64,000 nucleotides of DNA, taken from an uncultured Coriobacteriales bacterium. Lineage in GTDB: Bacteria > Actinomycetota > Coriobacteriia > Coriobacteriales > QAMH01. The notes beneath the pieces are model-generated. The model was not told where the DNA came from. It made no database searches and saw only the letters and a list, made by a program, of their open reading frames with translations. This document shows positions 3,146 through 47,722 of this stretch, piece after piece. A program made the translations under genes and the position numbers. Within the stretch, counting starts at the first letter, position 1. Each line of letters begins with the position of its first letter. Location: assembly GCA_934646835.1 (NCBI GenBank), contig CAKUES010000001.1:42090-106089 (forward strand), written 5' to 3'.

Positions 3146-3189
3146 GAGCGCGCCGTTGGCCAACAAAGCGTCAAGAGGGTCTCGCAATC

Positions 3190-3329
3190 AAAAAGATGCC
3201 GAAGTGTTAAGGGTTTTGGCGAACACGCGAGTAGACGGCTGTTGAAGCTTGCAAAACCGCAGGTCACAGCGTTGCGGATTCTTGGCTACTCGATGCTTTC
3301 GGCTAACCCTTAACACTTCGGCATCTTTT
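3190..3329 (+). repeat. family A palindromic element, copy A1 (most diverged)
   Basis: Terminal inverted repeats aaaagatgccgaagtgttaagggtt / aacccttaacacttcggcatctttt. The core is gagtagacggc...gcaaaaccgcaggtcacagcgttgc...ggctactc, shared with the other 5 copies. Confidence 0.8.
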
Positions 3330-3812: not shown

Positions 3813-4931
3813 CTACAGGTCCCTCTCCTCTGCGATGCGTTCGAAGAAGTACTCTCTGAATCCCGGCAGGCAGAATTCGAGCAAGCCCTTTGACCGCTCT
3901 TGGATAACACCATGCTGCAACAGACGTTTCTTGTATCTCGAAACATGACCGCTTCTCTTATCTAATCTGGCGGCCAAATCTGTCTGCTTCGTCGCTCCTG
4001 AGTCTTGCGTCATTGCCCAAAGGAAGGATTTGTCGGCTTCGCTCAGCTCAAACCACACCGCTTCGTAGACTCTTTCATCCAGCTCCTTGCGCGCGATGCT
4101 TGCTGCGGCGTTAACGCTTAAGATATCCACGATGTTTGAATCCTCGGCCATGCGCCAGGTGCGATAACCCGCAAGCTGTAACATGAAGGGGAAGCCCCCG
4201 ATAGCGTTAATCGCGGCTTCAAGAGCATCGGGCTCGAAGCTTTTGCCGCCGTCGCGCATCGTCCTTACCAGCGCCTCTTCGACTTCGTAATCGCTCAATG
4301 CCTGCAGCTCGTATCGTGCGGCTCTTCGCAGGAATGAAGTTGATTTACCCGAGAGCAGCGACGTTACCGCATACGGAAGACCCGCCATGATGAGGGAGAC
4401 CTTCTTCCCCTCGTCGAGGAAGTGCTGGAAAGCGGCGACGAGTGTCACCATTTCCTCAATATCAGGATTGACCTCGTCAATCGTCACTAGCAGCCCAGTG
4501 TCGCATTCAGCCAAAGCATCCAGAATATCGTCCATCCTTGAACGCCAGTTCGACAGCTCGCAAGGCGAATCCTCCAGCTCAATCGAGATGAGCTCGGCAA
4601 TTCCTGCTCCTTTGATTTTGCGCGAGGGGTTGGTATCCACCAGATGTCGTGCCGCTCGTTGCGTTCTGATAAGGATCTCGTCGAGCATCCCCTCAACGCA
4701 GGTAACGCGAGCCGTAATCCACCCCGAAGACTCGGCTGCGTCGGCAAAATAGGACAGGAGAGCCGTCTTGCCCATACCGCGCGGGCCGACCAAAAGGCTG
4801 ATGATCGCTGGATCGTTGCCTGTGCCGGAAAGAGCTGTCTCCACATCGGCGATGATCCTTTCGCGTCCGGCTATGTGCAAGGGAACCTTGCCGACCACAG
4901 GGGTGAATGGATTGTCGAAATCTATTGCCAT
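3813..4931 (-). CDS. AAA-type ATPase (AAA_16/Arch_ATPase-like) with C-terminal winged-helix-like domain
   Basis: Walker A GPRGMGKT, Walker B-like LLVTIDEV, and a C-terminal segment KQTDLAARLDKRSGHVSRYKKRLLQHGVI. GAGGAGG lies upstream of the ATG. GC is visibly lower than in the neighbours. Confidence 0.75.
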   Translation of the reverse strand: MAIDFDNPFTPVVGKVPLHIAGRERIIADVETALSGTGNDPAIISLLVGPRGMGKTALLSYFADAAESSGWITARVTCVEGMLDEILIRTQRAARHLVDTNPSRKIKGAGIAELISIELEDSPCELSNWRSRMDDILDALAECDTGLLVTIDEVNPDIEEMVTLVAAFQHFLDEGKKVSLIMAGLPYAVTSLLSGKSTSFLRRAARYELQALSDYEVEEALVRTMRDGGKSFEPDALEAAINAIGGFPFMLQLAGYRTWRMAEDSNIVDILSVNAAASIARKELDERVYEAVWFELSEADKSFLWAMTQDSGATKQTDLAARLDKRSGHVSRYKKRLLQHGVIQERSKGLLEFCLPGFREYFFERIAEERDL

Positions 4932-7098: not shown

Positions 7099-7839
7099 TT
7101 AGCAGCAGCCGCAAGAGCAGCTGGAGCCACTGTCCTTAGCGCCCGCGTCGACCGCAGCGGCTTTGGGCTCCGCGGGGCGAGCGGTGCTCTGGTCGTACTT
7201 CTCGCGCAGGAAGCCGCGGATGTTGTCCGGCATAACGTACTCGTCGTATGCGGGCTTCTCGTGCGTGAAGACGACCTCGAGGAGGCGCTTGACGATATAG
7301 GCCACGGGCGGGACCTCGTAGAGCTTGCCGTTGAAGTCGAACTGGCGGCAGAAGACATCGTAGCTGGACAGGGTGCGGCAGCAGTCGCATTCGTTCTCGA
7401 TGACCTCGGGACAGATGTCGACGCCGTTGACGCGCACGGTGGGGCTGCTCAAGAACTCGAAGCGGTCTGCCAGGTACTCGTTCTCGATCTCCACCTTGTT
7501 CATGACGATGTTGTAGCCGGCCATGTCCATGATGGGGCGCACCTGCTCGACGGCGGCAGCCACGCGCGCATCTGTACCCTGGCAACGGTCGCAAACGCTC
7601 TGGTCGAGGTAGAGGTAGTCGACGATGACGACCTCCTTGCGGCCGAGGTTGGGGTCGTCTTGCGTGGCATCGGGGTCACAGCAGCCGTTGGACTCGCCGC
7701 TGCCGCAGCAGCAGTCGGAGTCATCACCGCAGCAGCAGCTCTCCTTGGCCTCGGAGTGCTTCGAGCCACCACAGCAGCAGCTCTCCTCCTTCTCCTTCTT
7801 GGTCTCACCAGAGCAGCAGCAGTCGTTATTCTTCGTCAT
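7099..7839 (-). CDS. poly-cysteine protein with DUF2703-like (thioredoxin-like) core
   Basis: The N-terminus reads CCCSG..CCCGG..CCCGDDSDCCCGSGESNGCC and the C-terminus CSCGCC. The core VVIVDYLYLDQSVCDRCQGT...SSPTVRVNGVDI resembles DUF2703 as I recall it. The ATG at 7839 (GGGAGG 8 nt upstream) is preferred over the TTG at 7845. Confidence 0.7.
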   Translation of the reverse strand: MTKNNDCCCSGETKKEKEESCCCGGSKHSEAKESCCCGDDSDCCCGSGESNGCCDPDATQDDPNLGRKEVVIVDYLYLDQSVCDRCQGTDARVAAAVEQVRPIMDMAGYNIVMNKVEIENEYLADRFEFLSSPTVRVNGVDICPEVIENECDCCRTLSSYDVFCRQFDFNGKLYEVPPVAYIVKRLLEVVFTHEKPAYDEYVMPDNIRGFLREKYDQSTARPAEPKAAAVDAGAKDSGSSCSCGCC

Positions 7840-18647: not shown

Positions 18648-18989
18648 ATGAGCGAGAAATGCTGCATTGGCGACGGCAGCCCCACGGAGGAACTCACCTC
18701 GTTTGACGTCAACCCTGCATCCGCAGACCAAATGGCCGCCCTCTTCAAGGCGCTTGGCGACAAGCGCCGCCTCGAGATCATGGAGATCGTCGCCGATGAA
18801 GGCGACGCCTGCGCCTGCGCGCTGCTCGACGAGCTCGAGATCAGCCCCTCCACCCTGTCGCACCACACCCGCATCCTCACCCAAGCCGGCCTGCTCAACT
18901 GCTACCGTAAGGGCAAGTGGGCCCACTACCTCGTCAACGAGTCCGGCGTCGAGGCCGCCTGCGCGCTCTTGGGACGCCTGGCCAAATAG
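18648..18989 (+). CDS. arsR: ArsR/SmtB-family metalloregulator
   Basis: HTH region LGDKRRLEIMEIV...DACACALLDELEISPSTLSHHTRILTQAGLL with a C-x-C in the position of the ELCVCDL site, plus an N-terminal CC. AAGGGGGAG lies before the ATG. Confidence 0.85.
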   Translation: MSEKCCIGDGSPTEELTSFDVNPASADQMAALFKALGDKRRLEIMEIVADEGDACACALLDELEISPSTLSHHTRILTQAGLLNCYRKGKWAHYLVNESGVEAACALLGRLAK

Positions 18990-19007
18990 AGCGTCAAGTA
19001 TCGAACC

Positions 19008-21425
19008 ATGACCACCCATCCATCTGCATGCCAAGGCTGCTCGGCCTGCTGCGCCGTCCTCGTCGAAGAAAGCGACGGTGTGATAACGGCCGTGAAGGGC
19101 AGCCCCGCCTCCCCCGCCACAGGCGGCGCAGTCTGCCCCGCACTGCAGATCACCTTGCAGCAGCTTGCCGACCCCGACCGCGTGACGACGCCGCTGCTGC
19201 GCACCAATCCCGTCAAGAAGCGCGGTGAAAACCCCAGATTCAAGCCTGTGAGCTGGGACCTTGCGCTCGACCTGATTGCCGAGCGCATGCTCGAGCTGCG
19301 CCGCGAAGGCAAAGGCGAGCGCTTGGTCGTGAGTCGCGGGCGTTGCACGGGTATCTCGAACCTGCTCTTCAAGGCACTGCCGGACATCTTCGGCACGCCC
19401 AACCGCATCACGCACGACGGCATCTGCGCGGAAGCCGAGAAGCTCGCCTGCGGCAGCATGGACGGCATCTGGGATTACCGCGACTTCGACTTTGCCAACG
19501 CGAAATGCATCGTCTTGTGGGGCGCAGACCCACTTGTCTCCAACCGCTTCAAATCCATCGCCAACAAGCTACTTCCCAAGCTCGCAGAAGACGTGCGCGT
19601 CTTCGCCGTCGATCCCCATCTCTCCTACACCGCCACGCGCCTGGGCACTGACTGCTGGGTGCCCATCATCCCCGGCACCGACGGCGCGCTGGCGCTCGCA
19701 ATGGCCCACGTCATCCTGATCGAGGGCCTGTGGAGCAAGGACTACGTCGGCGATTTTGCCGACGGGTGTAACCGCTTCGAGCCGGGCGGCGAGGTCGACC
19801 CCGCTTGTTTTGAGGAGCGCGGCACGCTCGGGCTGGTCGACTGGTGGAACAGCGAGCTGCGCTGTCGTACGCCACAGTGGGCGGCACCGCTTTGCGGCGT
19901 GTCAGTCAGCCGCATCGTCGAGATGGCGCGTGTCCTTGCCGCAGCCGGGAGCCGCAGCATCTCCTGGATTTCCCCCGGCGTCACCATGACGGCGCGTGGT
20001 CTTGCGAGCGGCATGGCCTGCCACGCCCTCAACGCCCTCATGGGCTCGATCGACAGCGCTGGCGGCGTAAGGCGCCTACCCCTGCTGGGCTGCGCGCCAT
20101 GGCCCTCGACCGAGCCGTACCAAGACACCGAGGCACATCGCACAAACGCCTGCGAGCCCGTCGACCAGCGCTGCCACCGGGGCCTCATGGCTGCTAAGGA
20201 CGGCGGCATCCACGCAAACGCACTCACCGACAGGCTGGCCGACGCCATCTTGAGCGACGAGCCCTACCCCGTCGAGATGATGATCGGCTATTGGAACAAC
20301 TTCGCGTTCTCCTGCAGCGATACGCAGCGCTGGGAGGAGGCGCTGGCAAAGCTGCCGTTCTTCGTCCACGTGACCACCAATATCTCGGAGACCTCATGGT
20401 TTGCCGACCTCGTCTTGCCGGCAAAGAGCCACCTCTACGAGAGCTGGGGCTACGCCGTGAGCCGTATGCAGGGTCATAGCTGCGTCTGCCTGCAGACCCC
20501 CGCCGTCGACGCGCCGGGCGAGGCGCGCGCAGACGAGAGCGAGTTTCCCTTCATGCTCGCTCAAAAGCTCGCGGAGAAGGGATTCCCTGCACTGCTCGAC
20601 TACTACCGAGATTGCTTCCCGGAGGTGCTGACGGGTAAGGTGCCGAGCAACGGCACCGAGCTCGGCCGCAACGCCGTGCAGCAGATCACGCGCCCCCTGT
20701 GGGAGGCCGCAGGCGGTTGGGAGTGCTTCTTGAGCAGCGGCGTTGCCGAGGGCATCGGCGCCAAAGCCCCGCTGCGAGCAGCGGGAGAGATCACGGAGCT
20801 TCCCACTCCCAGCGGGCGCTTCGAGTTTCGCAGCTCTGTCATCGCGCGCATGCTCGCGGAGTACGCGACGCCCCACGGCATCAGCCAGCAGCAGGCCGTG
20901 TCAGAGCTTGGTTACGAGTGCAGCCCGCAGCTGCTTGCCCTACCGCATTGGGAGGCGCCGGCACGTGTTGGCGATGCTGCCAACTACCCGCTGGTGTTCA
21001 GCCAACACCGCGCCTACGCGAGCCTCGAGGGGCGCTCTGCGAACACGGAGCTCTTCCAGAGGATGAAGGGTATGGACCCCGGCGACGAGGCCTGGGGCGA
21101 CGTGCTCAAGGTCCATCCCGCAGACCTCGCGAGGCTGGGTATCGAGGATGGGGCGATGGCGCGTCTGGTGTCTCCCATCGGCAGCGCTGCCATCAAAGTC
21201 CGCGCATGGGAGGGCGTGCTGCCCGGCGTCGTCTCCAAATGCTACGGGCAGGGGCATTGGGCGTACGGGCACATTGCGGCTGCCGACTTCGAGGAAAGCA
21301 TCCCCCGCGGTGTCAACGCCAACGAGCTGATTCCCGCTGTCTACGAGGGAATCAGCGGCGCTACCGCACGTCATGGCGGCGTCATGCGCGTACGCCTCGA
21401 GCAGTTGGACGACACACTGTCGTGA
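19008..21425 (+). CDS. molybdopterin (bis-MGD) oxidoreductase, ArrA/Psr-type, with no Tat signal (predicted cytoplasmic)
   Basis: N-terminal FeS motif CQGCSACC...C, Mo-ligand block HDGICAE, and the conserved blocks IIPGTDGALALAMAHVIL and GQGHWAYGHIAA. It is a clear paralog of 42676..45267 but starts MTTHPSACQGC without an RR leader. Confidence 0.8.
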   Translation: MTTHPSACQGCSACCAVLVEESDGVITAVKGSPASPATGGAVCPALQITLQQLADPDRVTTPLLRTNPVKKRGENPRFKPVSWDLALDLIAERMLELRREGKGERLVVSRGRCTGISNLLFKALPDIFGTPNRITHDGICAEAEKLACGSMDGIWDYRDFDFANAKCIVLWGADPLVSNRFKSIANKLLPKLAEDVRVFAVDPHLSYTATRLGTDCWVPIIPGTDGALALAMAHVILIEGLWSKDYVGDFADGCNRFEPGGEVDPACFEERGTLGLVDWWNSELRCRTPQWAAPLCGVSVSRIVEMARVLAAAGSRSISWISPGVTMTARGLASGMACHALNALMGSIDSAGGVRRLPLLGCAPWPSTEPYQDTEAHRTNACEPVDQRCHRGLMAAKDGGIHANALTDRLADAILSDEPYPVEMMIGYWNNFAFSCSDTQRWEEALAKLPFFVHVTTNISETSWFADLVLPAKSHLYESWGYAVSRMQGHSCVCLQTPAVDAPGEARADESEFPFMLAQKLAEKGFPALLDYYRDCFPEVLTGKVPSNGTELGRNAVQQITRPLWEAAGGWECFLSSGVAEGIGAKAPLRAAGEITELPTPSGRFEFRSSVIARMLAEYATPHGISQQQAVSELGYECSPQLLALPHWEAPARVGDAANYPLVFSQHRAYASLEGRSANTELFQRMKGMDPGDEAWGDVLKVHPADLARLGIEDGAMARLVSPIGSAAIKVRAWEGVLPGVVSKCYGQGHWAYGHIAAADFEESIPRGVNANELIPAVYEGISGATARHGGVMRVRLEQLDDTLS

Positions 21426-21437
21426 GTTTGCACGCCC

Positions 21438-21476
21438 GCTGCAACCAGATGGCGCCGACTCCGTCTGGCGCCTACG
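21438..21476 (+). repeat. family B REP-like hairpin (single copy)
   Basis: gctgcaaccagatGGCGCCgactccgtctGGCGCCtacg. Confidence 0.8.
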
Positions 21477-21527
21477 CTGGCCTGCGACCTGCAGGGGCTG
21501 ACGCGCAAACCCGTAGCGAGTTGCGGC

Positions 21528-21613
21528 GCAGTCAACACTCCCGTCAGGCTGATTTGTTGACCAAGCCATGCTTGGCATGGTCAACAAATCAGCCTGACGG
21601 GAGTGTTGACTGC
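21528..21613. repeat. 86-nt near-perfect hairpin
   Basis: The 36-nt arm gcagtcaacactcccgtcaggctgatttgttgacca (21528-21563) is perfectly complementary to 21578-21613. The inner gcca-tgct-tggc extends the stem. Confidence 0.85.
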
Positions 21614-21672
21614 AGCCAAAACCCCACGAAAACCATATAGGAGCACCACCAATACCAGATTCTGTAAAAAAC

Positions 21673-21700
21673 TTGCAATTGAGACTTGCGCGCCTAATGG
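21673..21700 (+). promoter_or_regulatory. weak candidate promoter for the AhpD-like/arsS operon
   Basis: TTGCAA, 16 nt, TAATGG; by eye only. Confidence 0.2.
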
Positions 21701-21806
21701 ATGATGTCTTATATTGGTTCCAGCAAGTCAGTCCTCCCTCATACAATCAACTGGCTTCGCAAGAGAGCAGTTGCAGCTGTTCTCAAGCAAACTCCTTTGG
21801 ATTGTT

Positions 21807-21850
21807 TGGCTCGAACGGGAACAGGCCCCCGTTCGAGCCAAAAGTCTTTT
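21807..21850 (+). terminator. terminator-like hairpin inside the 5' leader of the AhpD-like/arsS operon (candidate attenuator)
   Basis: tggctcgaacggg-aacaggcc-cccgttcgagcca (13-bp stem) followed by aaagtctttt. A second short GC stem plus T5 lies at 21874-21893, and a third hairpin at 21908-21924 sits just before the RBS. Confidence 0.4.
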
Positions 21851-21944
21851 AGGGCGGATTCCCGACCGCAACAGCCGCGCCTGCGGCGTTTTTCATATTT
21901 GGCCCAAACCCACTGCTTGAGTGGGATAAGAAGAAAGGACTCCC

Positions 21945-22283
21945 ATGGAAACCTATTACAACCCCGCTGACCTCGCCAAGTTCTCTGCAGAGGGCGTCGG
22001 CTCCGCCGCCCCCGAGCTCTGGGAGAAGTACATGGGCTACTACGGCTCCGTCTTCCAGGACGGCGCCCTGACCGCCCGCGAGAAGGCCCTCATCGCCGTC
22101 GCTGTGGCAGCTGCCGTCCAGTGCCCCTACTGCATCGACGCCTACACCAACACCCTGCTGCAGGACGGCTGCGACGCAGACGAAATCATGGAAGCCATCC
22201 ATGTCGCCAACGCGATCCGCGGCGGCGCATCCCTCGTCCACGGCGTCCAGGCCGTCAACATCATCGAGAAGAACGAGCTGTAA
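21945..22283 (+). CDS. carboxymuconolactone decarboxylase (AhpD-like) family protein, arsenosugar-biosynthesis-associated type
   Basis: AhpD-like CxxC (AAVQCPYCIDAYT), about 110 aa, immediately upstream of ArsS as in the TIGR04169/TIGR04167 pairing I recall. Confidence 0.8.
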   Translation: METYYNPADLAKFSAEGVGSAAPELWEKYMGYYGSVFQDGALTAREKALIAVAVAAAVQCPYCIDAYTNTLLQDGCDADEIMEAIHVANAIRGGASLVHGVQAVNIIEKNEL

Positions 22284-22372
22284 ATCGGCAACCGCCGTAT
22301 ACTACGAACTTCGATAAAGCCGAGGGGAGCACACCGTGAGGGCGGCGTCTCCCCTCTTTCGTTGGAGAGAAT

Positions 22373-23401
22373 ATGTCCCAGTTAATCGATAGGATTGCAA
22401 ACGATCCTGAGCTCAAGGCGGCGATGGCGGCGTTTCCGCCCTTTGTCGAGCGCGTACCGGAGAAGTACCGCGCAAGCCTCGACGAGCTCGACGTGTTGCA
22501 GGTCAACGTCACGCGCCAGTGCAACATCGTCTGCAAGCACTGCCACCTCGACTGTCATCCCAATCGCACGGAGCACATGTCGCGCGAGCACCTCGAGCAG
22601 TGCCTCGACGTCTTCGAGCAGCGCGGCTTCAAGACGCTCGACATCACCGGCGGCGCTCCGGAGATGAACCCGGACTTCGAGTGGTTCATCCGCGAGGCGG
22701 GCTGTCGCAACATCCCCATGATCGTGCGCAGCAACCTCATCATCCACGAGGAACCCGGTTACGAGCACTACCCCGCGCTCTTCGCGCAGCTCGGCATCAA
22801 CGTCGTGGCGTCGCTTCCCCACTACCGCGAGCGCAACATGGAGAAGCAGCGCGGCGCGGGCACCTTCATGCCCGTCATCCACGGCCTGCAGCGCCTCAAC
22901 GCGCTCGGCTACGGCAAGGGCGAAGCGGGCAAGAACGCCGCAGGTCAAAAGCTCCAGCTTGACCTTGTCTTCAATCCGTCCGGCATCAACATGCCACCCG
23001 ATCAGGCGACCATGGAGGCCGAGTACAAGCGCCGTCTCAAGGCAGACTTCGACATCGAATTCGACAACCTGTTCACCTTCACCAATGCACCGGGCGGTCG
23101 CTTTGCCATGGCGCTCATGAAGGCCGGCAAGCTCGACATGTACATGAACAAGCTCATCGGCGCGTTCAACCCGAACACGGTCGAGGGCATGATGTGCCGC
23201 ATGGAGTACTCCGTCGCCCCCGACGGCCATCTGTATGACTGCGACTTCAACCAGGCGGTGGCGCTGCCTTGTGCCGACGGCCGCATGATCGGCGACCTGC
23301 TCGACCCCAACCAGCCGCTCAAGCGCCGCATCTGCTTTGGCAACCACTGCTACTCCTGCACGGCCGGGGCAGGCAGCAGTTGAGGCGGCAGCACAGCGTA
23401 G
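22373..23401 (+). CDS. arsS: radical SAM (seleno)protein ArsS, arsenosugar-type; in-frame TGA at 23381-23383 read as selenocysteine
   Basis: Radical SAM motif CNIVCKHC and Cys-rich C-terminal domain CFGNHCYSCTAGAGSS. The track ORF stops at the TGA, but the frame continues GGC GGC AGC ACA GCG TAG, giving ...GSSUGGSTA. A hairpin follows. The family assignment is firm; the Sec extension is less so. Confidence 0.75.
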
Positions 23402-23411
23402 GTTCTACGCT
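23395..23411 (+). promoter_or_regulatory. candidate bacterial SECIS hairpin
   Basis: agcgtag-gtt-ctacgct, a perfect 7-bp stem. The loop starts 18 nt after the UGA and begins with G. Confidence 0.4.
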
Positions 23412-23422
23412 CTCAAAGCGGA

Positions 23423-23455
23423 AACGCCCGTAAGTAGTGGATGCTTGCGGGCGTT
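23423..23455 (+). terminator. hairpin downstream of arsS
   Basis: aacgcccg...cgggcgtt (8-bp stem, 17-nt loop); weak U-tract. Confidence 0.3.
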
Positions 23456-23535
23456 CCTGTTATTGCGGCCATGGCAAGCGCAGACTGAGGAGGCCTGGTT
23501 GCGGCCACGGCAAGTGCAGGCTGGGGCGCCTGGCG

Positions 23536-23684
23536 AACAAAAAGTGCACGAAGTGTTAAGGGTTTCGGCAAGTGGACGAGTAGACGGCGATTTCCACTTG
23601 CAAAACCGCAGGTCACAGCGTTGCCGATTCTTGGCTACTCGCCTGCTCGCCGAAACCCTTAACACTTCGTGCACTTTTTGTTCG
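23536..23684 (+). repeat. family A palindromic element, copy A2
   Basis: TIRs gaacaaaaagtgcacgaagtgttaagggtttcggc / gccgaaacccttaacacttcgtgcactttttgttc, with the core in plus orientation. Confidence 0.85.
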
Positions 23685-23725
23685 CGGGGCCCCTCAACCC
23701 ACGCAATCGAGTGCCGCAAAAGCGA

Positions 23726-34045: not shown

Positions 34046-34194
34046 CGAAACAAAAAGTGCACGAAGTGTTAAGGGTTTCGGCAAGATGCGGAGTAGGCGA
34101 CAATTTCCGCTTGCAAAACCGCAGGTCACGGCGTTGCCAATTTTTGGCTACTCCGCATCTCGCCGAAACCCTTAACACTTCGTCCACTTTTTGT
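34046..34194 (+). repeat. family A palindromic element, copy A3
   Basis: Same TIRs and core (plus orientation). It is preceded by the conserved linker ggcggcccaccaacgggctcc, as in A5. Confidence 0.85.
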
Positions 34195-34763
34195 TAGGCA
34201 GAGCCGTGGAGCCCTCACGTGGCACCCGTATAAACCCACACGAAAGTTGAAGAAGAGGAATAATGGCGAAATAGGCCTCATGCATGACAAGATGTGTGCA
34301 TCGCAAAAGCGCCGGACTGGCTTACCGGCGTAGCCGTTGTTGTGATGATAGACTTCGCCGTTACAACAAGACCTACAGAAGAAGCCCCGTCCACTACGGC
34401 CCCAACATGCAGCCGGATCGCTGGGGCTCTCAAACCGAGCTACTACTATTTCCCATCATCATGCTGGCCTGCGTCGCTTTGATGACTTTGATTCTTCACT
34501 AGCTCAGCCCCGAGTATTGGAGCGAGCCCACTGACCTCAAAGAGAGCGATAAAGACGTCTGGCATTGCGGGCGCCCGATCGGTGGCTTGGGTTGAACTCA
34601 AGTGCGGCGTTTTCTCTCTGTTTATGGCTTGGCCCCTTGCCTGGCAGCGACGCAATGTTGGCTATCGGTGCAATCGTGTTCGCCTTGTTGGCCATGCAAC
34701 GCCCTTCGCGTTTGTTGCGAGATTTCTTCGCAGAGGCCTGGCCAAGAGCGAGGCCCCGCAGCG

Positions 34764-36026: not shown

Positions 36027-36178
36027 GAAATCAAAAAGTGCACGAAGTGTTAAGGGTTTGGCCGGATGCATCGAGTAGCCAAGAATCCGCAACGCTATGA
36101 CCTGCGGTTTTGCAAGTGGAAATCGCCGTCTACTCGCCTCCTCGCCGAAACCCTTAACACTTCGTGCACTTTTTGTTC
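36027..36178 (-). repeat. family A palindromic element, copy A4 (core inverted)
   Basis: Core cgagtagccaagaatccgcaacgctatgacctgcggttttgcaagtggaaatcgccgtctactcg, the reverse complement of the A2 core. Confidence 0.85.
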
Positions 36179-36290
36179 GCGAGGCGCATTTGCGGACCGA
36201 AATATCACTCTAACTCGCGGCAACATCGCAGCGCAATGCACCCGAGCGCAGGCCGCGAAGCCCATACTCGGGTGCGCCAGCGTGCGACTC

Positions 36291-37085
36291 TTATGCTGCA
36301 TCCGCCGCCTTGTGCATCTTGTCGACGACCTGGGTGTAGAACAGGCCAGCAAGGACGCCGCCGACGAGCGGGGCAACGACGTAAACGACCCACACGCCCC
36401 AGTCGGCAAGGCCGGAGGTAGCCAGGACGCCGCTGGCGACGAGCCACATGACGCGCGGCAGGATGTCGCGGGCGGGATTCAGGCCGGCGTCGGTCATGGG
36501 GCCGGCGGTGCAGATGATCAGCGTAACGGTCAGGCCGATGAACAGCAGGAAGATGACGTCACCGGGCTTGCCGGCATTGGCGTCCTCGGTCATGGAGAAG
36601 ATGACGAAGACGAGGACGAAGACGCCGATACCCTCGGCAAGCGAGCCCTCGAGCACGCCTATGGAGAGCGCCGAGCTGTTGGTGATCTGCTCGCACCAGA
36701 TGGAGGCCGCGGTATCGGGACCGGCAACGCTTGCCCAAGAGGAGTCGAGGCCGTTGACGGAGGCAGCGAAGTAGATCCACAGGACCAACGCTGCGATAAA
36801 GGCTCCGATGAACTGGCCGATGAGGTATGGCAGGACCTTCTTGCCCTCGAGGCGGCCGGTGACGGCCATGGCCACCGTGACGGCCGAGTTGAAGTGAGCG
36901 CAGCTCAGGTTGCGCGTGCAGTAGATCGCAATGGCGATGGCGAGACCCCACACCATACCGACCTGGAAGGGACCGGTGTGAGCCCCGGCCAGCGTTGCGG
37001 TGGCGACGGCGCCGATGCCAAAGAAGCGCATGATGAATGTGCCGATGACCTCGCCCATCACCTCTCGAGCAGTGGCGTTACCCAT
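36291..37085 (-). CDS. MIP-family channel (aquaglyceroporin-like), first NPA box changed to NSA
   Basis: SCAHFNSAVTVAM and DAGLNPARDILPR. AAGGAGGAG lies upstream of the ATG. Divergent from arsM. Confidence 0.9.
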   Translation of the reverse strand: MGNATAREVMGEVIGTFIMRFFGIGAVATATLAGAHTGPFQVGMVWGLAIAIAIYCTRNLSCAHFNSAVTVAMAVTGRLEGKKVLPYLIGQFIGAFIAALVLWIYFAASVNGLDSSWASVAGPDTAASIWCEQITNSSALSIGVLEGSLAEGIGVFVLVFVIFSMTEDANAGKPGDVIFLLFIGLTVTLIICTAGPMTDAGLNPARDILPRVMWLVASGVLATSGLADWGVWVVYVVAPLVGGVLAGLFYTQVVDKMHKAADAA

Positions 37086-37325
37086 GCTCTCTTACTCCTC
37101 CTTGCGTTACATGCGGAAGGGCTTGGCCTTTTGGCCCAGTCGACTGCAGGCGGTGCTCCGTAATCCCACCAGTGGAGTGGGATTCTTTCACATCTATTTG
37201 CGGTTGTCCACTAATCTCTTGTTGCAATAATCTTGTCGAGCTGATACGCTCGAACTACCAACCTATTGAGTAGGTAGGATTAATCACGCGACGAGAGCTG
37301 CCGCTTTCTTAGAGAAGGAGCACCC

Positions 37326-38372
37326 ATGAGCGATATCCGCGAGCAGGTCAAGGAGTACTACAGCAACCTGAAGTCCTCTGGCGACCTCAAGACCGAGGTC
37401 TGCACCTGTGGCAGCGCACCCAAGGACATCCGGGCCATCATCAACGAGCTGCCCACAGAGATCTGCGAGCGCTTCTACGGCTGTGGCAGCCCCATCCCGC
37501 CCATGCTCGAGGGCTGCACCGTGCTCGACCTGGGCTGCGGCACTGGTCGCGACGTGTTCGCCTGCTCCAAGCTCGTCGGTGAGACCGGCAAGGTCATCGG
37601 CGTCGATATGAACGAGGACCAGCTTGCTGTCGGCGAGAAGTACAAGGACGAGGTCGCCAAGGCCTTTGGCTACACGGCCAGCAACGTCGAGTTCAAGCGC
37701 GGCTACATCGAGGACCTCAAGAGCTTGGGCATCGAGGACAGCAGCATCGACGTCGTCATCTCCAACTGTGTCATCAACCTCTCCCCCTTCAAGGAAGCCG
37801 TGTTCTCGGAGATCTGGCGCGTTCTCACCTACGGCGGCGAGCTCTACTTCTCCGACGTTTTTGCCGACCGCCGCATGCCGGCGGAGCTCGCAGCCGACCC
37901 CGTGCTGCGCGGCGAGTGTATCTCCGGCGCGATGTACATCGAGGACTTCCGCCGCTTGATGCGCAAGATCGGTTGGGAGGACTTCCGTTACATGTCCACC
38001 CGCCGCTCCGTCATCGGCAACGACGAGATCGCCGAGAGGGTCAAGGACTTTACCTTCTTCTCCCACACGGTGCGCGCCTTCAAGATCCCCGACAAGATCG
38101 AGGACCTGTGCGAGCAGTACAACCAGGTCGCAACCTATCAGGGCACCATCCCCGGCATGAACCAGTTCTTCGATCTGGACGACCACCATCGCTTCTTCAC
38201 CGATCAGCCGCTTGAGGTCTGCGGCAACTCTTGCGCGATGGTCGAGGACACGCGCTACGGCAAGGCCTTCAAGATCGAGGGCAACCGCGATGTTCACTAC
38301 GGACCCTTCCCCGGTTGCGGCAACATCCCCTACTCCGCCAACGGCGAGGATGCTGGCGGCTGCTGCTGCTAG
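37326..38372 (+). CDS. arsM: arsenite S-adenosylmethionine methyltransferase
   Basis: SAM motif VLDLGCGTGRD. All four ArsM cysteine positions are present (N-terminal CTCG, YGCGSP, ISNCVINL, GECISGA). C-terminal tail GGCCC. GAAGGAG lies before the ATG. Confidence 0.9.
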   Translation: MSDIREQVKEYYSNLKSSGDLKTEVCTCGSAPKDIRAIINELPTEICERFYGCGSPIPPMLEGCTVLDLGCGTGRDVFACSKLVGETGKVIGVDMNEDQLAVGEKYKDEVAKAFGYTASNVEFKRGYIEDLKSLGIEDSSIDVVISNCVINLSPFKEAVFSEIWRVLTYGGELYFSDVFADRRMPAELAADPVLRGECISGAMYIEDFRRLMRKIGWEDFRYMSTRRSVIGNDEIAERVKDFTFFSHTVRAFKIPDKIEDLCEQYNQVATYQGTIPGMNQFFDLDDHHRFFTDQPLEVCGNSCAMVEDTRYGKAFKIEGNRDVHYGPFPGCGNIPYSANGEDAGGCCC

Positions 38373-38459
38373 GTGCAGCGAGGATCTGTCCGCACAGTAA
38401 TCGAGAGCGTGCCCGGCAATTTGCCTGTCGGGCACGCTCTTTTGGGACGCTCGAACCTC

Positions 38460-38738
38460 GCTGCAACCTATGGCGCCGACTTCGTCTGGCACCTACGTGG
38501 GCTTTGGGACTCGCCGGTGCTGACGCGATGCTCGGCGTGCGTTGCAGCGTTGGGGGCGAATGAATTCGGCCCCAAACTAAGTCTTCCTATGATGAAATAT
38601 TGTTTGCGCAGGTAAAACATACGTAGGGGCCGAATTCATTCGACCCGGCGCGACGGGAATCAGATGTTTGTGCGGAAGCATCCTCAGGACGCAAGCCCAC
38701 GTAGGCGCCAGACGCAGTCGGCGCCATCAGGTTGCGAC
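38460..38738. repeat. family B composite (B 38460-38497 in plus orientation, B 38700-38738 in minus orientation) with nested AT-rich insert
   Basis: The inverted B pair has a centre carrying a second inverted repeat, ggggcgaatgaattcggcccc / ggggccgaattcattcgaccc, around a 50-bp AT-rich stretch. Confidence 0.8.
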
Positions 38739-38763
38739 GATTTGGCGGCCCGCCAACGGGCTC

Positions 38764-38913
38764 CGAAACAAAAAGTACACGAAGTGTTAAGGGTTTCCGC
38801 GAGCGGGCGAGTAGGCGGCGATTTCTGCTCGCAAAACCGCAGGTCACGGCGTTGCCGATTTTTGGCTACTCGCCTGCTCGCCGAAACCCTTAACACTTCG
38901 TGTACTTTTTGTT
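38764..38913 (+). repeat. family A palindromic element, copy A5
   Basis: TIRs gaaacaaaaagtacacgaagtgttaagggttt / aaacccttaacacttcgtgtactttttgttc, with the core in plus orientation. Confidence 0.85.
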
Positions 38914-39008
38914 CGCCAGGCGCTCCGCAATCGCAGCCTGAGCGCAACTAACTGCCGCTGCAGGCATCGGTTGCCTGCGGCGGTGGTTCGCTCTGTGTCA
39001 GAGAGGCG

Positions 39009-39557
39009 CTACTCACCCGGGAAGTAGGGGCACTGCCCGCGCAGGCACTGGGCATTGCCGCCACAGAAGGTGCAGGTCACGCGCTCAGGGCGCACCATGC
39101 GCACGTTGAAGTGCTCGTTGAGAAAATCAATCGCGTCGAGGGCAGCGGTATAGCTCGAGCGACTGCAGCAACGCGGCAGCTCGGCCTCGGCGATATGCCC
39201 TTGCACCGTCGCCGTTAGGCGCTGGCACTGCCCCCAGGGCTCGCGCGTCATGGGCGTCGCGCCGTTGATAACGCTGAGCGCCTGGCCCACGCCCACCGCC
39301 ACACCGCAGCAGCACCACGACTCGCACGAGCAACCGGGGACCTGCCCAGCTCGCGCGGCGTATTCCTTGAGGGCAGCGCCCTTGGTCATCGTGCCGCCGT
39401 TGATCTTGCCACCCGCATTGAAGAAGGCCGTGATGACGGCCGCACCCGCAGCCATATGGCGCATGGGGTCCTCGGCGCAGCAGCCCGCGCCAGCAAGCAG
39501 ACCCTCCATGACATCGATCGCATCGCACGAGCGATTGGTAATGCAGCTCTTGAACAT
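39009..39557 (-). CDS. Cys-rich protein, short paralog of 47723..48442 (possibly DUF5714-like)
   Basis: Shares GGKINGG, PGCSCESWCCCG..VGQALSVINGATPM, RCC..S..TAALDAIDFLNEHFNV and VTCTFCGGNAQCLRGQCPYFP with the long paralog. It lacks the Zn-ribbon N-terminus. Start at MFKSC (39557). Confidence 0.6.
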   Translation of the reverse strand: MFKSCITNRSCDAIDVMEGLLAGAGCCAEDPMRHMAAGAAVITAFFNAGGKINGGTMTKGAALKEYAARAGQVPGCSCESWCCCGVAVGVGQALSVINGATPMTREPWGQCQRLTATVQGHIAEAELPRCCSRSSYTAALDAIDFLNEHFNVRMVRPERVTCTFCGGNAQCLRGQCPYFPGE

Positions 39558-39667
39558 CTCTTCCTCTCTACGCGGACACCCGCGCACCCTCATCAAACGC
39601 AAAGACGCGCTCGCCAGCATTACAGCCAGCGAGCGCGCAAAAGCTCGAAACCTACTATCCCTTGCAG

Positions 39668-40606
39668 CTAGCAGCAGCTGCTGGTCACGACCTCGCCGTT
39701 ATCGGCAGTGTAAGGGATGTTGCCGCAGCCGGGATAGGGGCCGTAGTGCACGTTGCGGTTGCCGTCGATCTTAAAGTACTTGCCCACGCGCGTGTCCTGG
39801 ACCATGGAGCAGGAGTTGCCGCAAACCTCGAGCGGCTCGTCCTTGACAAAGCGATGATGATCGTCGAGGTCGTAGTACTCGTCACAGCCCTCGATGCCGC
39901 CCAGGTAGGTGGCAACCTGGCCGTACTGCTCGCACAAGTCCTCGATCTTGTCGGGGATCTTGTAGGCGCGCACGGTGCGGATAAAGAAGGTGATGCCGGC
40001 AAAATCGGGGTCGTCAGTGGAGGTGGCGACGGTACGTGTGTGACGGAAGTCTGCCCAACCGGCGGCGGTCATCTGACGGCGGAAGTCCTCGATGTACATT
40101 GCGGAGCCGGTGCCGGCAGCGCGCTTGACGGGGCAGGACTTGATGGAGGCGGTCATGCGACGATCGGCGAAGACGTCGGTTGCGTAGAGCTCGCCACCAT
40201 AAGCCAGCACACGCCAAACCTCGTTGAGGACAGCCTGGGTGTTGATCGGCGCAGAGATGCCGCAGTTGGAGATGACGAGGTCAGTCTCGGAGTCGACGAT
40301 CGCCTCGAGGTTGGTGAGCTCGCTCACGATGAACTGGCAGTTAGCCGGGGCGTGCTTGCGCGCGACGGCGATCTTGTCTGCATCCGGATCAACGCCGATG
40401 ACCATGCCGTCTTCGCCAACGAGCTTGGAGGCGATGTAGGCGTCTCGACCGGTGCCACAGCCCAGGACGAGGACGCGGATGCCCTCCATCGCAGGCGGGA
40501 AGGGGTAACCGGTCGTGACCGTGCCAGCGATAACCTCCTCGGGGATCTCCTTCAAGATCTCCGCGATCTTCTCCGACGGGGTGCCGGGAATGCGAATCTC
40601 GCTCAT
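39668..40606 (-). CDS. ArsM-like SAM methyltransferase paralog lacking three of the four As(III)-binding cysteine positions
   Basis: VLVLGCGTGRD. The C-terminal half is almost collinear with ArsM (KIPDKIEDLCEQY..VATY...LEVCGNSC.MV.DTR.GK.FKI.GNR.VHYGP.PGCGNIPY). YGCG is replaced by GYPFPP, GECISGA by AAGTGSA, and there is no N-terminal Cys. The tail is SSCC. Confidence 0.8.
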   Translation of the reverse strand: MSEIRIPGTPSEKIAEILKEIPEEVIAGTVTTGYPFPPAMEGIRVLVLGCGTGRDAYIASKLVGEDGMVIGVDPDADKIAVARKHAPANCQFIVSELTNLEAIVDSETDLVISNCGISAPINTQAVLNEVWRVLAYGGELYATDVFADRRMTASIKSCPVKRAAGTGSAMYIEDFRRQMTAAGWADFRHTRTVATSTDDPDFAGITFFIRTVRAYKIPDKIEDLCEQYGQVATYLGGIEGCDEYYDLDDHHRFVKDEPLEVCGNSCSMVQDTRVGKYFKIDGNRNVHYGPYPGCGNIPYTADNGEVVTSSCC

Positions 40607-40681
40607 AGTGATGCTTCCTTTCTCGAAACCGGCCGCACGGCCGGCTTGTCCCTAGTAATCGAAACGCCGCAGGGCCAGCCC

Positions 40682-41320
40682 TTACCTGAACGCGCTCAAA
40701 ATGCCGCCGAACATGGCATCGAGCTGGTCTTTCGACAGCTCATTGAGCGTCCAGGCACCGTTGGTTCGCGTCAGGTTCAAGTCGATGGTCTTGCTCTTGG
40801 ACTTGCTGCTCAGGGCAGAGACCTCGTCTTCGACCTTGGCGATCAAGGCCTTGGTCATCTCCGCGTCCGCGTCGCTGCCGTCGCTCACAGCCTTGATGAA
40901 GCCCTCACCAAAACCCTCCATGCCGTCCTTGTACGCGCTGCCAAAGTCGTAGGCCTTGAAGGTCACGTTGACCTTGGCGGTGTTGTTGTCGATGGCTGTG
41001 CTGTTGATGGTGTAGTCGAACGAGCACAGCTTCTTGGAGACATCGGCGATAAACTCCTGCTGGCTATCGCTCAAGCTATCAGTGTCAGGCGACATGGCGA
41101 CGTCATCCTTTGCGGACAGCATGCCCACGACGTCCTTGCTCTTGCTGTCGAGCTTGCCGCCGGTGTACACCGTAGCAAGCGTCGTACCGTCCATCGTCTT
41201 GATGGAGGTCAGGGCCGTATCGGCAACCTCCGCCGGCTTCATCTCGCCGCAACCGGCCAGGCTCAGCGCCATAATCGACGCTACACCCAGGGCTGCTAGC
41301 GGCCTCATGAACTTACGCAT
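40682..41320 (-). CDS. lipoprotein of unknown function
   Basis: Signal and lipobox MRKFMRPLAALGVASIMALSLAGC. The ATG overlaps the TorD-like stop by 8 nt. Confidence 0.65.
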   Translation of the reverse strand: MRKFMRPLAALGVASIMALSLAGCGEMKPAEVADTALTSIKTMDGTTLATVYTGGKLDSKSKDVVGMLSAKDDVAMSPDTDSLSDSQQEFIADVSKKLCSFDYTINSTAIDNNTAKVNVTFKAYDFGSAYKDGMEGFGEGFIKAVSDGSDADAEMTKALIAKVEDEVSALSSKSKSKTIDLNLTRTNGAWTLNELSKDQLDAMFGGILSAFR

Positions 41321-41966
41321 CCAATACCTCCTCGCTCAAAACACCGACGAGAAGACGCATCAGCGCAGGGTAGAGCGGAAACTCTGCATAGTCGTCGACC
41401 AGCTGCTTGAACTCCGGCAGCCAACGCAGGATATAGAGCGCGACGAAGTCGCGATAGGCCTCGACGAACTCCTCCTGGCCGCGCTGCTCGTGGGTGGCGG
41501 CGAGCCGTGCCGCAAAGGCGAGCAGGTAGCGGATGTGATCGGCCGGCTCGTGCTCGCTGGCAGACAGCTCCAGCCCAAACTGCTCGTAGAGCTGGGCCAC
41601 CTCCATGGTCGTCGGGCCGTAGACCTGGTGCTCACCGTCGACGTAGTACGACGCGTAGGGCGGCGCGTACATTTTGAAGCTGCCGATAAAGAGCCTCGTG
41701 TACTCGAGCTGGGCGGGCTCGGCGTCTTGCGGCTGCTCGACGCTGGGCGCCGCAAAGGCCTGCGCTGCATCGAGGACAGCGGTGATTTGCTCGGCATATG
41801 CCGAGCACGCAGCATCTGCCACACACAAGCGCAGGGGCGCAAGCGCCGCCTGCAGGCCCAACGCGGGATAGGTCAGGGCCGCAGACAGCGCTGCGAGCAG
41901 CGAGGACGGGGCGACGGGGGCGATGGGGGCGATGTTCCCAGAGTTTTCCTGCATGTCCCCTACCAC
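41313..41966 (-). CDS. TorD/DmsD-family molybdoenzyme maturation chaperone (ArrD-like)
   Basis: EYTRLFIG...PPYASYY...EPADHIRYLLAFAA, the typical TorD-family pattern. The start is either GTG 41966 (overlapping the upstream TAG) or ATG 41954. Confidence 0.75.
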   Translation of the reverse strand: MVGDMQENSGNIAPIAPVAPSSLLAALSAALTYPALGLQAALAPLRLCVADAACSAYAEQITAVLDAAQAFAAPSVEQPQDAEPAQLEYTRLFIGSFKMYAPPYASYYVDGEHQVYGPTTMEVAQLYEQFGLELSASEHEPADHIRYLLAFAARLAATHEQRGQEEFVEAYRDFVALYILRWLPEFKQLVDDYAEFPLYPALMRLLVGVLSEEVLDA

Positions 41967-42673
41967 GTCTTCTTGAACTCGCGGATGTAGTAGACGGCGG
42001 GCTTGGTGCCCTTCTCCGGCTTGAGGACCGTGGGCTCAAAGGACTGGGTGAGCTCGTAGATCTCGCCGTAGATGTCTGCCTCGTTGCCAAAGATGCGCGC
42101 ACCTGCGGGGCAGGCGTCGACGCAATAGGGCTTGTCGCCGGAGTAGACCAGGTGCTTGCACATCTGGCACTTGAGCGGGCCGCCCTTCCTGGTGTTGGGC
42201 AGGTTGTACGCGTCGAGCGCCGGGTCATGGGAGGGGTACTTGGCTCCGATGAACTCCTGCATCTCCTCAGGCGTGCCCGTGCAGTCCTTGATGAGCTGCT
42301 TGACGGAGCTCACCTGATCAGCGCTGGACTCGCCGTCGCAGCGCGTGATGGCGTGGTAAGGGCAGGCCGCAGCGCACAGGCCGCAGGCGACGCACTTGCT
42401 CGGGTCGTGCACGGTGAGGCCGTACTCGTCCTTGTGCATGGCATGCGTGGGGCACGCCTTGACGCAGGCGGCGTCGGTGCAGTGGTTGCACATGACCGGC
42501 CTGTAGGAGTACTCGACGTCCGGGAAGGTGCCCGTAGTCTCGTTGACGTGATAGGTCAAAAACGTGCCCTCGGGGACCTCGTTATGGGTTTTGCACGCGA
42601 TCTCGCATGCACCGCAGCCGACGCAGCGGTGCAGGTCGATGACCATGGCGTAGCGGGTCTTCTTGTCTGCCAT
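41960..42673 (-). CDS. arrB: 4Fe-4S ferredoxin-type subunit (putative ArrB)
   Basis: Four Cys groups (CVGCGACEIAC, CNHCTDAACVKAC, CVACGLCAAAC, CQMC...C). GAGGAG lies before the ATG, 2 nt after the large-subunit stop. Confidence 0.8.
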   Translation of the reverse strand: MADKKTRYAMVIDLHRCVGCGACEIACKTHNEVPEGTFLTYHVNETTGTFPDVEYSYRPVMCNHCTDAACVKACPTHAMHKDEYGLTVHDPSKCVACGLCAAACPYHAITRCDGESSADQVSSVKQLIKDCTGTPEEMQEFIGAKYPSHDPALDAYNLPNTRKGGPLKCQMCKHLVYSGDKPYCVDACPAGARIFGNEADIYGEIYELTQSFEPTVLKPEKGTKPAVYYIREFKKTW

Positions 42674-42675
42674 CT

Positions 42676-45267: not shown

Positions 45268-45476
45268 TTGGACTTCCTGTTCTCTCTTCTCTCTCGACGC
45301 AGGTTGCTCAGGCCTGCAAAGCCCCTCTCGCCATATGCTCGCCGTTATCTTGGTTTGGGGAAGTCATGCATACGGCAGGCGAATGCGGCTATTGTAGGCG
45401 TTTCTTTACAGGAATTTGACGAAAATTGCATATTGGCTCTTATTCGGATGAATTTTATAGAGCAATAACAATGCTA

Positions 45477-45505
45477 TTTGCATTTTGCTAATAGCTTCTC
45501 TATAC
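45477..45505 (+). promoter_or_regulatory. candidate sigma-70-type promoter of the second MIP gene, overlapped by a 6-11-6 inverted repeat
   Basis: TTGCAT (45477-45482), 17 nt, TATACT (45500-45505). The inverted repeat GCTATT-N11-AATAGC lies at 45472-45494. Confidence 0.35.
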
Positions 45506-45575
45506 TTCATGACTGGCGGAAGTCACCCCTGTGCTCACAGGGAATCGCCACCTCGTGAGAAAGAGTCCTACTCAA

Positions 45576-46373
45576 ATGAAAATCGCAAAGACCCTCGTCG
45601 GTGAGATCATCGGCACCTTCATGATGTGCTTTCTGGGCATCGGCGCTGTCGCGACCGCGACCCTGTACGGCGCACTCACCGGCCCTGGCCAGATCGGCCT
45701 CGTCTGGGGTATCGCAATCGCGCTGGGCATCTTCATGACCCGCAGCCTGTCTGACGCGCACTTCAACCCTGCCGTTACCCTGGCCATGTGCATCTCCGGC
45801 CGCAACAAGTGGTCCGAGCTGCCCGTCTACTTCATCGGCCAGTGCATCGGCGCCTTCCTCGGCGCTGGCGCCCTGTGGATCCTCTTCGCCGACTCCGTCG
45901 CCAAGAACCTGGCAAACGCCGGCCTGACCATGTCCACCAACTCCATCGGCTCTGCCGCCACCATCTGGGCCGAGGTCTTCCCCAACAGCTCCCAGGCCAT
46001 GATCTCCATGCAGGGTGCAATGTTCGCCGAGGGCTTCGCCGTCTTCATCCTGTGCCTGGTCATCCTCGTCGTGACCGACAAGAACAACGAGGGCGCCCCC
46101 ACCGCAGCACTCGCACCGCTGTTCATCGGCCTCACCGTCACCGTTCTGATCAACGTCGTCGGCCCTCTGACCGACGCTGGTCTCAACCCCGCCCGTGACC
46201 TCATGCCCCGCGTGGTCGCGATGATGGTTGGCTTCAAGACCGTTGCCTTTGGCACCAACGCCTTCAACGTCTGGATGGTCTACACCGTCGCGCCGTTCAT
46301 CGGCGGTGCTGTTGCAGCCCTGCTGTATCGCTTTGGCCTCACTCGCATGTTTGAGGACAAGAACGAGGCCTAA
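45576..46373 (+). CDS. MIP-family channel (aquaglyceroporin-like)
   Basis: SDAHFNPAVTLAM and DAGLNPARDLMPR. The start is taken at MKIAKTLVGEIIG (45576). Confidence 0.9.
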   Translation: MKIAKTLVGEIIGTFMMCFLGIGAVATATLYGALTGPGQIGLVWGIAIALGIFMTRSLSDAHFNPAVTLAMCISGRNKWSELPVYFIGQCIGAFLGAGALWILFADSVAKNLANAGLTMSTNSIGSAATIWAEVFPNSSQAMISMQGAMFAEGFAVFILCLVILVVTDKNNEGAPTAALAPLFIGLTVTVLINVVGPLTDAGLNPARDLMPRVVAMMVGFKTVAFGTNAFNVWMVYTVAPFIGGAVAALLYRFGLTRMFEDKNEA

Positions 46374-47479: not shown

Positions 47480-47629
47480 AAATCAAAAAGTGCGCGAAGT
47501 GTTAAGGGTTTGAGCGGGTTATCGAGTAGCCGAAAATCGGCAACGCTGTGACCTGCGGTTTTGCGAGCGAAAATCGCCGTCTACTCGGCAACCCGCTCAA
47601 ACCCTTAACACTTCGCGCACTTTTTGTTC
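47480..47629 (-). repeat. family A palindromic element, copy A6 (core inverted)
   Basis: Core cgagtagccgaaaatcggcaacgctgtgacctgcggttttgcgagcgaaaatcgccgtctactcg, with the same TIRs. Confidence 0.85.
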
Positions 47630-47722
47630 GCAGGGCGCCCTGAAATCGCCGCCTGAGCGCAAAAAGCCGCCGCCGCAGGCATCGCTTGCCCGCGGCGGCG
47701 GCTCGCTCGCACCAGAGAGGCG

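Follow-up and report, generated by a model that had tools for sequence, protein, structure and literature searches.

The gene at positions 22373-23401 of the stretch of Coriobacteriales DNA studied here (64 kb of contig CAKUES010000001.1; this whole stretch is referred to as the window) very probably encodes a 342-residue arsenosugar biosynthesis protein of the radical SAM type, ArsS, with selenocysteine (Sec) as residue 337. Judged from comparative sequence analysis, the TGA at 23381-23383 would be read as Sec, and the open reading frame (ORF) as called is too short. An earlier note on this DNA had made this proposal, which is supported by the occurrence of either Cys or TGA at the same column in homologues, by the tail conserved behind it and by a covarying hairpin downstream. 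The elements concerned are listed below.

22373..23401, + strand: predicted full-length coding sequence of the ArsS selenoprotein, 342 codons, Sec as residue 337, tail GGSTA, stop TAG at 23399-23401
23381..23383, + strand: UGA, predicted selenocysteine U337; TGA or a Cys codon occupies this column in 78 of 78 loci
23384..23394, + strand: spacer of 11 nt between UGA and stem, comprising the Gly-Gly-Ser codons and the start of the Thr codon
23395..23411, + strand: putative selenocysteine insertion sequence (SECIS) hairpin with a stem of 7 bp, AGCGUAG/CUACGCU, and the loop GUU, or alternatively a stem of 6 bp and the loop GGUUC
23423..23455, + strand: terminator-like hairpin behind the gene, with a stem of 14 bp and then CCTGTTATTG

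As called, the ORF on the + strand extends from the ATG at 22373 to the TGA at 23381-23383 (22373..23383) and its peptide ends in ...HCYSCTAGAGSS. The C-terminal letters of the reading from this ATG to the TGA are ...FGNHCYSCTAGAGSS. Behind the TGA the same frame continues with GGC GGC AGC ACA GCG TAG (23384-23401), resulting in ...GSS-U-GGSTA. The end of the ORF, the position of the TGA and the GGSTA continuation had been described in the earlier note correctly in every detail. The family it named, TIGR04167, was also the right one. This NCBIfam model is called rSAM_SeCys, and its product description reads ‘arsenosugar biosynthesis radical SAM (seleno)protein ArsS’. In a profile search the called form reaches 367.1 bits (cutoff 300) and covers profile positions 5-298 of 303, five short of the profile end. 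When U is replaced by C and the tail is added, the score rises by 10.5 bits to 377.6 and the match extends over positions 5-302 of 303. The sequence GSS-TGA-GGC-GGC at 23372-23389 corresponds to the C-terminal GSS[C/U]GG motif of the family. Two Pfam domains are present, Radical_SAM (PF04055, 35.6 bits) and DUF3641 (PF12345, 143.5 bits). The radical SAM motif CX3CX2C is formed by C50, C54 and C57 and is invariant across an alignment of 29 homologues (alignment A1), as are the C-terminal cysteines. No ArsS structure was found in a search of the PDB. Two selenoproteome reviews include TIGR04167 among the predicted selenoproteins, as ‘Radical SAM domain protein’ with the motif GxxU and the example AAR34688.1; both credit the bSECISearch paper, and the listing dates back to 2005.

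Homologues were taken from the protein collection, and the C-termini of the 120 closest ones are of two types: 69 end in ...G[AS]GSS, and 51 end in ...GSSCGG followed by 3-4 residues. No third type occurred among them, and GSSCGG of the Cys homologues stands at exactly the column that the earlier note had predicted for such an alignment. For the comparison on the DNA level 80 genome loci were fetched, and the GSS motif could be located in 78. Directly behind GSS, 31 of these 78 loci have TGA and 47 a Cys codon (TGC or TGT); TAA, TAG and other sense codons do not occur there. The 31 TGA loci are from species-level genomes and span protein identities of 50-91%; cultured carriers of the TGA form include Gordonibacter pamelaeae and Raoultibacter massiliensis (L027, L034). 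A natural end of the homologues at GAGSS, which would have spoken against the proposal of the earlier note, was not encountered: in 31 of 31 short-form loci, TGA is followed by GGN GGN. In all TGA forms the frame behind the TGA has the pattern GGN GGN xxx ACN GCN stop, with ACA replacing GCN in one sequence. The tail GG[STAE]T[AT] is kept in 29 of 29 distinct TGA forms, and each of its variants (GGSTA, GGTTA, GGATA, GGETA and GGSTT) is also found among the Cys-form tails. Both Gly codons after the TGA differ at synonymous third positions only (GGC/GGT/GGA/GGG). UAG serves as the final stop of 27 out of the 29 distinct TGA forms, and the 47 Cys forms end with TAA (27), TAG (18) or TGA (2). The nearest Cys form (P0005, 82% identity) carries TGC where Sec is predicted, ends with TAA and has no complement to the 5' arm of the hairpin. 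Since TGA was found in 31 of 31 cases, although UGA makes up only about one fifth of the stops in the Eggerthellaceae, and since the peptide behind it is conserved, we take the TGA not to be a stop.

A TGA at this position could in principle arise by a sequencing or assembly error, or by a recent TGC to TGA inactivation that leaves a pseudogene tail; a single base change is sufficient. However, the identical protein is encoded by at least 65 contigs of many independent gut metagenomes, with a 337-kb contig among its carriers, the TGA is common to 31 species-level genomes of 50-91% protein identity, and it is accompanied by the covarying hairpin, which is missing from the Cys forms. The recurrence of the identical protein and the conservation of the TGA refute this explanation, to which we assign next to no probability.

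It was also considered that UGA is reassigned to Trp (genetic code 4), by which residue 337 would be Trp and not Sec. Code 4 has been reported in one clade of the Eggerthellaceae (PMC13462651), and TGA is rare as a stop in the window, where the 25 family-supported genes end with TAG (15), TAA (8) or TGA (2). (The count was restricted to these genes; a greedy ORF selection was dropped, as it was contaminated by the antisense ORFs of G+C-rich DNA.) The residue at the column in question is nevertheless always Cys and never Trp in homologues, and when read with code 11, each of the 25 family-supported genes is intact and free of internal TGA. Moreover, an ArrA-like gene ends at a TGA six residues past an alignment that reaches profile position 847 of 848, and a TetR-like gene is terminated by TGA as well. 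The G+C content of the window amounts to 60%, compared to an average of 36.8% in the code-4 clade (PMC13462651). The rank of the stops in the window, TAG > TAA > TGA, is that of ordinary Eggerthellaceae, in which UAG, UAA and UGA average 44.6, 34.9 and 20.5% (PMC13462651). On the basis of the Cys column, the lack of internal TGA, the TGA stops and the G+C content, code 4 was rejected; the chance that it applies appears minute. The scarcity of TGA stops (2 of 25) despite 60% G+C is an observation in its own right that fits the Eggerthellaceae-wide preference for UAG (PMC13462651). As a speculation, the authors of that survey suggest that UGA stops may be disfavoured by the decoding of Sec.

Downstream of the UGA, the hairpin claimed in the earlier note was found as described. 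The sequence AGCGTAG-GTT-CTACGCT at 23395-23411 forms a perfect 7-bp stem with a G-first loop starting 18 nt past the UGA; in the alternative reading with a 6-bp stem and the loop GGUUC this distance is 17 nt. Its 5' arm contains the final sense codon together with the stop UAG, while loop and 3' arm are located in the 3' untranslated region (UTR). For the bare hairpin a folding energy of -7.6 kcal/mol was calculated, and for the 35-nt stretch including the flank -10.7 kcal/mol. These properties were compared with the constraints on bacterial SECIS elements given in PMC13188914, which summarises the bSECISearch model of Zhang and Gladyshev 2005. The apical loop (3 or 5 nt) and the stem (7 or 6 bp) lie within the published 3-9 nt and 4-16 bp (PMC13188914). 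G is the first nucleotide of GUU as well as of GGUUC, where one within the first two loop positions is asked for, and both energies are within the limit of <= -7.5 kcal/mol (PMC13188914). The distance from UGA to loop of 18 or 17 nt falls into the range of 16-37 nt (PMC13188914), as the earlier note had supposed.

The hairpin was then followed across the orthologues. The best simple hairpin within 45 nt of the UGA has its loop start at 17-18 nt in 28 of 30 distinct TGA forms, with a median energy of -7.5 kcal/mol. In comparison, the best hairpins of the Cys forms (n = 47) are weak, with a median of -1.1 kcal/mol, and have no fixed position (Mann-Whitney p = 2.9e-10). A plain MAFFT alignment of the 3' ends misregistered the 3' arms owing to unequal loop lengths, and a covariance-model alignment was used instead. 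Across the 14 sequences with a common register, pairing in the 6-bp helix is complete (100% of cells) and compensatory double changes occur at 3 of 6 pairs; the covariation score was matched by 0 of 500 shuffles. A covariance model trained on these 14 orthologous hairpins, with the window left out, was used to search 549 kb. It matches the window at 23381-23415 with 34.1 bits and E = 2.6e-6, whereas the next matches in the window have E >= 4. All Coriobacteriia TGA loci score at least 29 bits and all Cys loci at most 23 bits. The model-based alignment of 30 sequences (27 distinct) gives the same picture: pairing of the helix is 100%, 3 of 6 pairs have compensatory changes, and none of 500 shuffles attains the observed covariation score. 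The outermost pair occurs as GC, CG, AU and UA, and the fourth pair likewise as GC, AU, CG and UA. As a control, the 3' partner was moved by 1-3 columns, upon which pairing dropped to 16-52% (14 sequences) and 22-52% (27 sequences). The spacer between UGA and stem measures 11 nt in 30 of 30 aligned TGA-form sequences; as the loop, most orthologues have GGUC and others GGUCU, compared to GGUUC in the window. Variation in the 5' arm falls on the third positions of the codons for Thr and Ala, and the matching changes lie in untranslated sequence. This covariation is convincing because third-base changes on the coding side are mirrored in untranslated DNA, as selection on RNA structure predicts. 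The hairpin is conserved, covarying and specific to the Sec forms.

Several findings weigh against Sec decoding. Taken alone, the hairpin is ordinary for DNA of 60% G+C (z = -0.99; 32 of 200 shuffles fold equally well), and the energy of the bare hairpin, -7.6 kcal/mol, lies barely within the -7.5 threshold. It is devoid of a bulged U of the kind known from E. coli fdhF. No Rfam family exists for the hairpin, and a scan of the whole window against Rfam was empty; the latter is uninformative, as no curated family was found for bacterial SECIS elements of this type. Owing to the common descent of the orthologues, the TGA loci cannot be counted as independent events. In the 64-kb window no tRNA, including tRNA-Sec, was detected by ARAGORN, and no recognisable selA, selB or selD was found. 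A second selenoprotein was searched for among TGA-ended frames with coding-like extensions in the window, which yielded antisense shadow ORFs only; without a second candidate the window holds no independent evidence of Sec use. Most Eggerthellaceae with the standard code possess tRNA-Sec and selB (PMC13462651), and from this survey together with the conservation signature we infer that the host genome would contain the machinery as well.

Of these points, the ordinary folding of the hairpin taken alone and the lack of tRNA-Sec in the window would also suit a rival reading, in which the TGA is a genuine stop, the protein a 336-residue ArsS without tail and the hairpin a mere structure at the 3' end of the mRNA. 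All public gene calls agree with such a protein of 336 amino acids (the 49 members of the cluster at 90% identity, as well as 69 among the 120 closest homologues), and release factor 2 (RF2) competes with SelB at Sec codons (work cited in PMC13462651). A genuine stop would, however, be expected to drift, as the stops of the Cys forms do (27 TAA, 18 TAG, 2 TGA), and TGA is found here in 31 of 31 cases. In addition, the five codons past the TGA preserve the peptide of the Cys forms with synonymous changes, and the hairpin is both covarying and held at an invariant 11 nt from the UGA. A separate, much stronger terminator-like structure is also present at 23423-23455; the stretch 23415-23470 folds with -29.3 kcal/mol (z = -4.8). 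We consider it highly improbable that termination at the TGA is the sole outcome. Besides full-length ArsS, some RF2-terminated product is likely to be formed, especially under selenium scarcity.

For the favoured Sec reading the following course of translation can be proposed. The UGA at 23381-23383 would be decoded as selenocysteine instead of acting as a stop, with SelB carrying Sec-tRNA(Sec) presumably bound to the hairpin at 23395-23411, 11 nt past the UGA. Translation would then proceed through Gly-Gly-Ser-Thr-Ala to the true stop UAG at 23399-23401 within the 5' arm of the hairpin. As Sec is placed six codons from the end, the true stop comes to lie in the 5' arm of the SECIS, loop and 3' arm stay untranslated, and half of the element belongs to the 3' UTR. 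The high share of UAG in the TGA forms (27 of 29, compared to 18 of 47 in the Cys forms) points towards a choice of stop codon that appears to be constrained by the RNA structure.

Like other bacterial SECIS elements, the hairpin is a stem-loop just past the UGA with a G-first loop at a distance of 17-18 nt. The minimal element of E. coli fdhF has an 11-nt spacer and a GGUC loop, as seen in the ArsS hairpin. In contrast to the bacterial consensus and fdhF, the hairpin in the window is very short (17 nt) and has no lower stem, and the true UAG is contained in its 5' arm with loop and 3' arm untranslated.

Outside the Coriobacteriia type, a different arrangement was observed in two Firmicutes-type TGA forms with TAA stop, from a Lachnospiraceae and an Eubacteriales metagenome-assembled genome (MAG; L046 and L080, both 3931-3972). 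These have another hairpin further downstream, for example GUUCC-GUC-GGAAC with the loop 23 nt past the UGA, which indicates that the SECIS solution varies between lineages of the ArsS family. One Cys form with TGC (L055, 3070-3104) shows a 6-bp hairpin, CGCGUA-GAUGA-UGCGCG, 17 nt past the codon and hence at the SECIS position; with 23 bits it has the top covariance-model score among Cys forms. It may represent a recent Sec-to-Cys conversion in which a decaying SECIS is retained. A 26-kb contig binned as Akkermansia muciniphila (L002, CAVCDT010000014.1) carries an ArsS that is 90% identical to the one of the window, with a SECIS of the Coriobacteriia type, and is probably mis-binned. In an Eggerthellaceae MAG (L064, 3474 and 5606) a second ArsS-like C-terminus with the divergent tail ...GSS-C-EGTLVQSA occurs about 2 kb downstream, which may belong to a tandem paralogue.

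Characterised ArsS enzymes adenosylate DMAs(III) to DDMAA (PMC13598754). By analogy, the protein of the window is assigned the same role, the radical SAM-dependent addition of the 5'-deoxyadenosyl group to dimethylarsenite in arsenosugar biosynthesis. With other members of TIGR04167 it shares a score over the cutoff, the CX3CX2C motif, DUF3641, an AhpD-like neighbour and, as predicted, Sec in G-S-S-U six residues from the C-terminus. No structural difference to the family was noted; the copy in the window is set apart by its origin from uncultured human-gut Coriobacteriia/Eggerthellaceae and by its location beside ArsR and ArrA-like genes. The ArsS enzymes that have been studied biochemically are reportedly Cys forms from cyanobacteria. 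Other arsenic-related selenoproteins are known with NF041537 (ArsM/AhpD-domain), NF041536 (ArsM/DUF2284) and the UxxS form of arsenate reductase. Common to these and to ArsS is Sec in place of Cys in an enzyme of trivalent arsenic, but their folds are different. The ArsM-like and AhpD-like genes of the window itself are Cys forms with ordinary stops.

Altogether, a known selenoprotein family is recognised correctly and its annotation corrected, which is no new phenomenon. The knowledge on selenoproteins and ArsS is unchanged, and the result will not surprise a specialist. Its use lies in the annotation, as the public calls (49 cluster members, 69 of 120 homologues) end at the Sec codon and lose the U-GG tail. 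Structural, biochemical or expression work on gut ArsS would consequently begin from a truncated protein, and in a host without a compatible SelB/SECIS pair a U337C construct would be required. The 30 aligned 3' ends of Sec forms with their covarying hairpin could serve as seed for an RNA family model of the ArsS SECIS.

Our guess is that the GSSUGG tail at the C-terminus provides a flexible residue, either redox-active or ligating As(III), which works together with the conserved DUF3641 cysteines. Going further, two modestly novel readings can be put forward jointly, although we consider them doubtful. The tail may supply the selenium ligand of the trivalent arsenic substrate (As-Se bond) or, alternatively, may serve as redox partner to the neighbouring AhpD-like protein with the CPYC motif; if so, ArsS would join the enzymes that use Sec specifically for arsenic chemistry, here in anaerobic gut Coriobacteriia. 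The second reading is that the hairpin may be a naturally minimal SECIS of 16-17 nt, with the true UAG as a structural part, in which the RNA structure selects the stop. The basic classification is unchanged by either.

The genes surrounding ArsS are related to arsenic as well, and the window contains an arsenic-related island in two parts (18648-23401 and 36294-46370) with the following members.

18648..18989, + strand: regulator of the ArsR/SmtB family, first gene of the string, NF033788, 76 bits vs cutoff 55
19008..21425, + strand: ArrA-like molybdopterin oxidoreductase, NF041714, 731 bits, below the cutoff of 1600, profile positions 51-847 of 848
21945..22283, + strand: AhpD-like partner directly upstream of ArsS, TIGR04169, 165 bits vs cutoff 120, CPYC motif
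37326-38369, + strand: ArsM-like methyltransferase with Cys-rich tail
39671-40606, - strand: ArsM-like methyltransferase with Cys-rich tail
41963-42682, - strand: second ArrB-like gene, 225 bits, below cutoff
42679-45363, - strand: second ArrA-like gene, 950 bits, below cutoff

Two MIP/aquaglyceroporin genes are included in the island, too. TIGR04169 describes an arsenosugar biosynthesis-associated peroxidase-like protein, and the AhpD-like gene adjoins ArsS, as is typical of the family, in every gene-carrying contig (L081-L087). The order ArsR/ArrA-like/AhpD-like/ArsS is kept in five of six fetched gut-metagenome contigs with identical ArsS (L081-L084 and L086); in the sixth, L085, the AhpD-like gene alone stays beside ArsS. 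The ArrA-like protein at 19008..21425 lacks the N-terminal ~50 profile positions and is cytoplasmic-looking.

Two further features of the window were noted. A protein of 246 amino acids with Cys-rich termini (...NNDCCCSGE...SCCCG; ...SSCSCGCC) is encoded at 7102-7839 on the - strand. It gives a sub-threshold match to NF049942, ‘DF family (seleno)protein’ (47.6 bits vs cutoff 70), and no in-frame TGA was found in this gene. The second feature is a palindromic intergenic repeat of about 150 nt, of which the window contains six copies with 82-92% identity in both orientations.

3181-3329, 23536-23685, 34049-34195, 36032-36187, 38767-38916 and 47484-47640, both orientations: copies of the palindromic repeat

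The copy at 23536-23685 is located just downstream of the ArsS terminator, and its inverted arms of 65 nt (23519-23583 and 23635-23699) are 86% complementary. The repeat looks like a miniature inverted-repeat transposable element (MITE) or an element similar to repetitive extragenic palindromes (REP-like).

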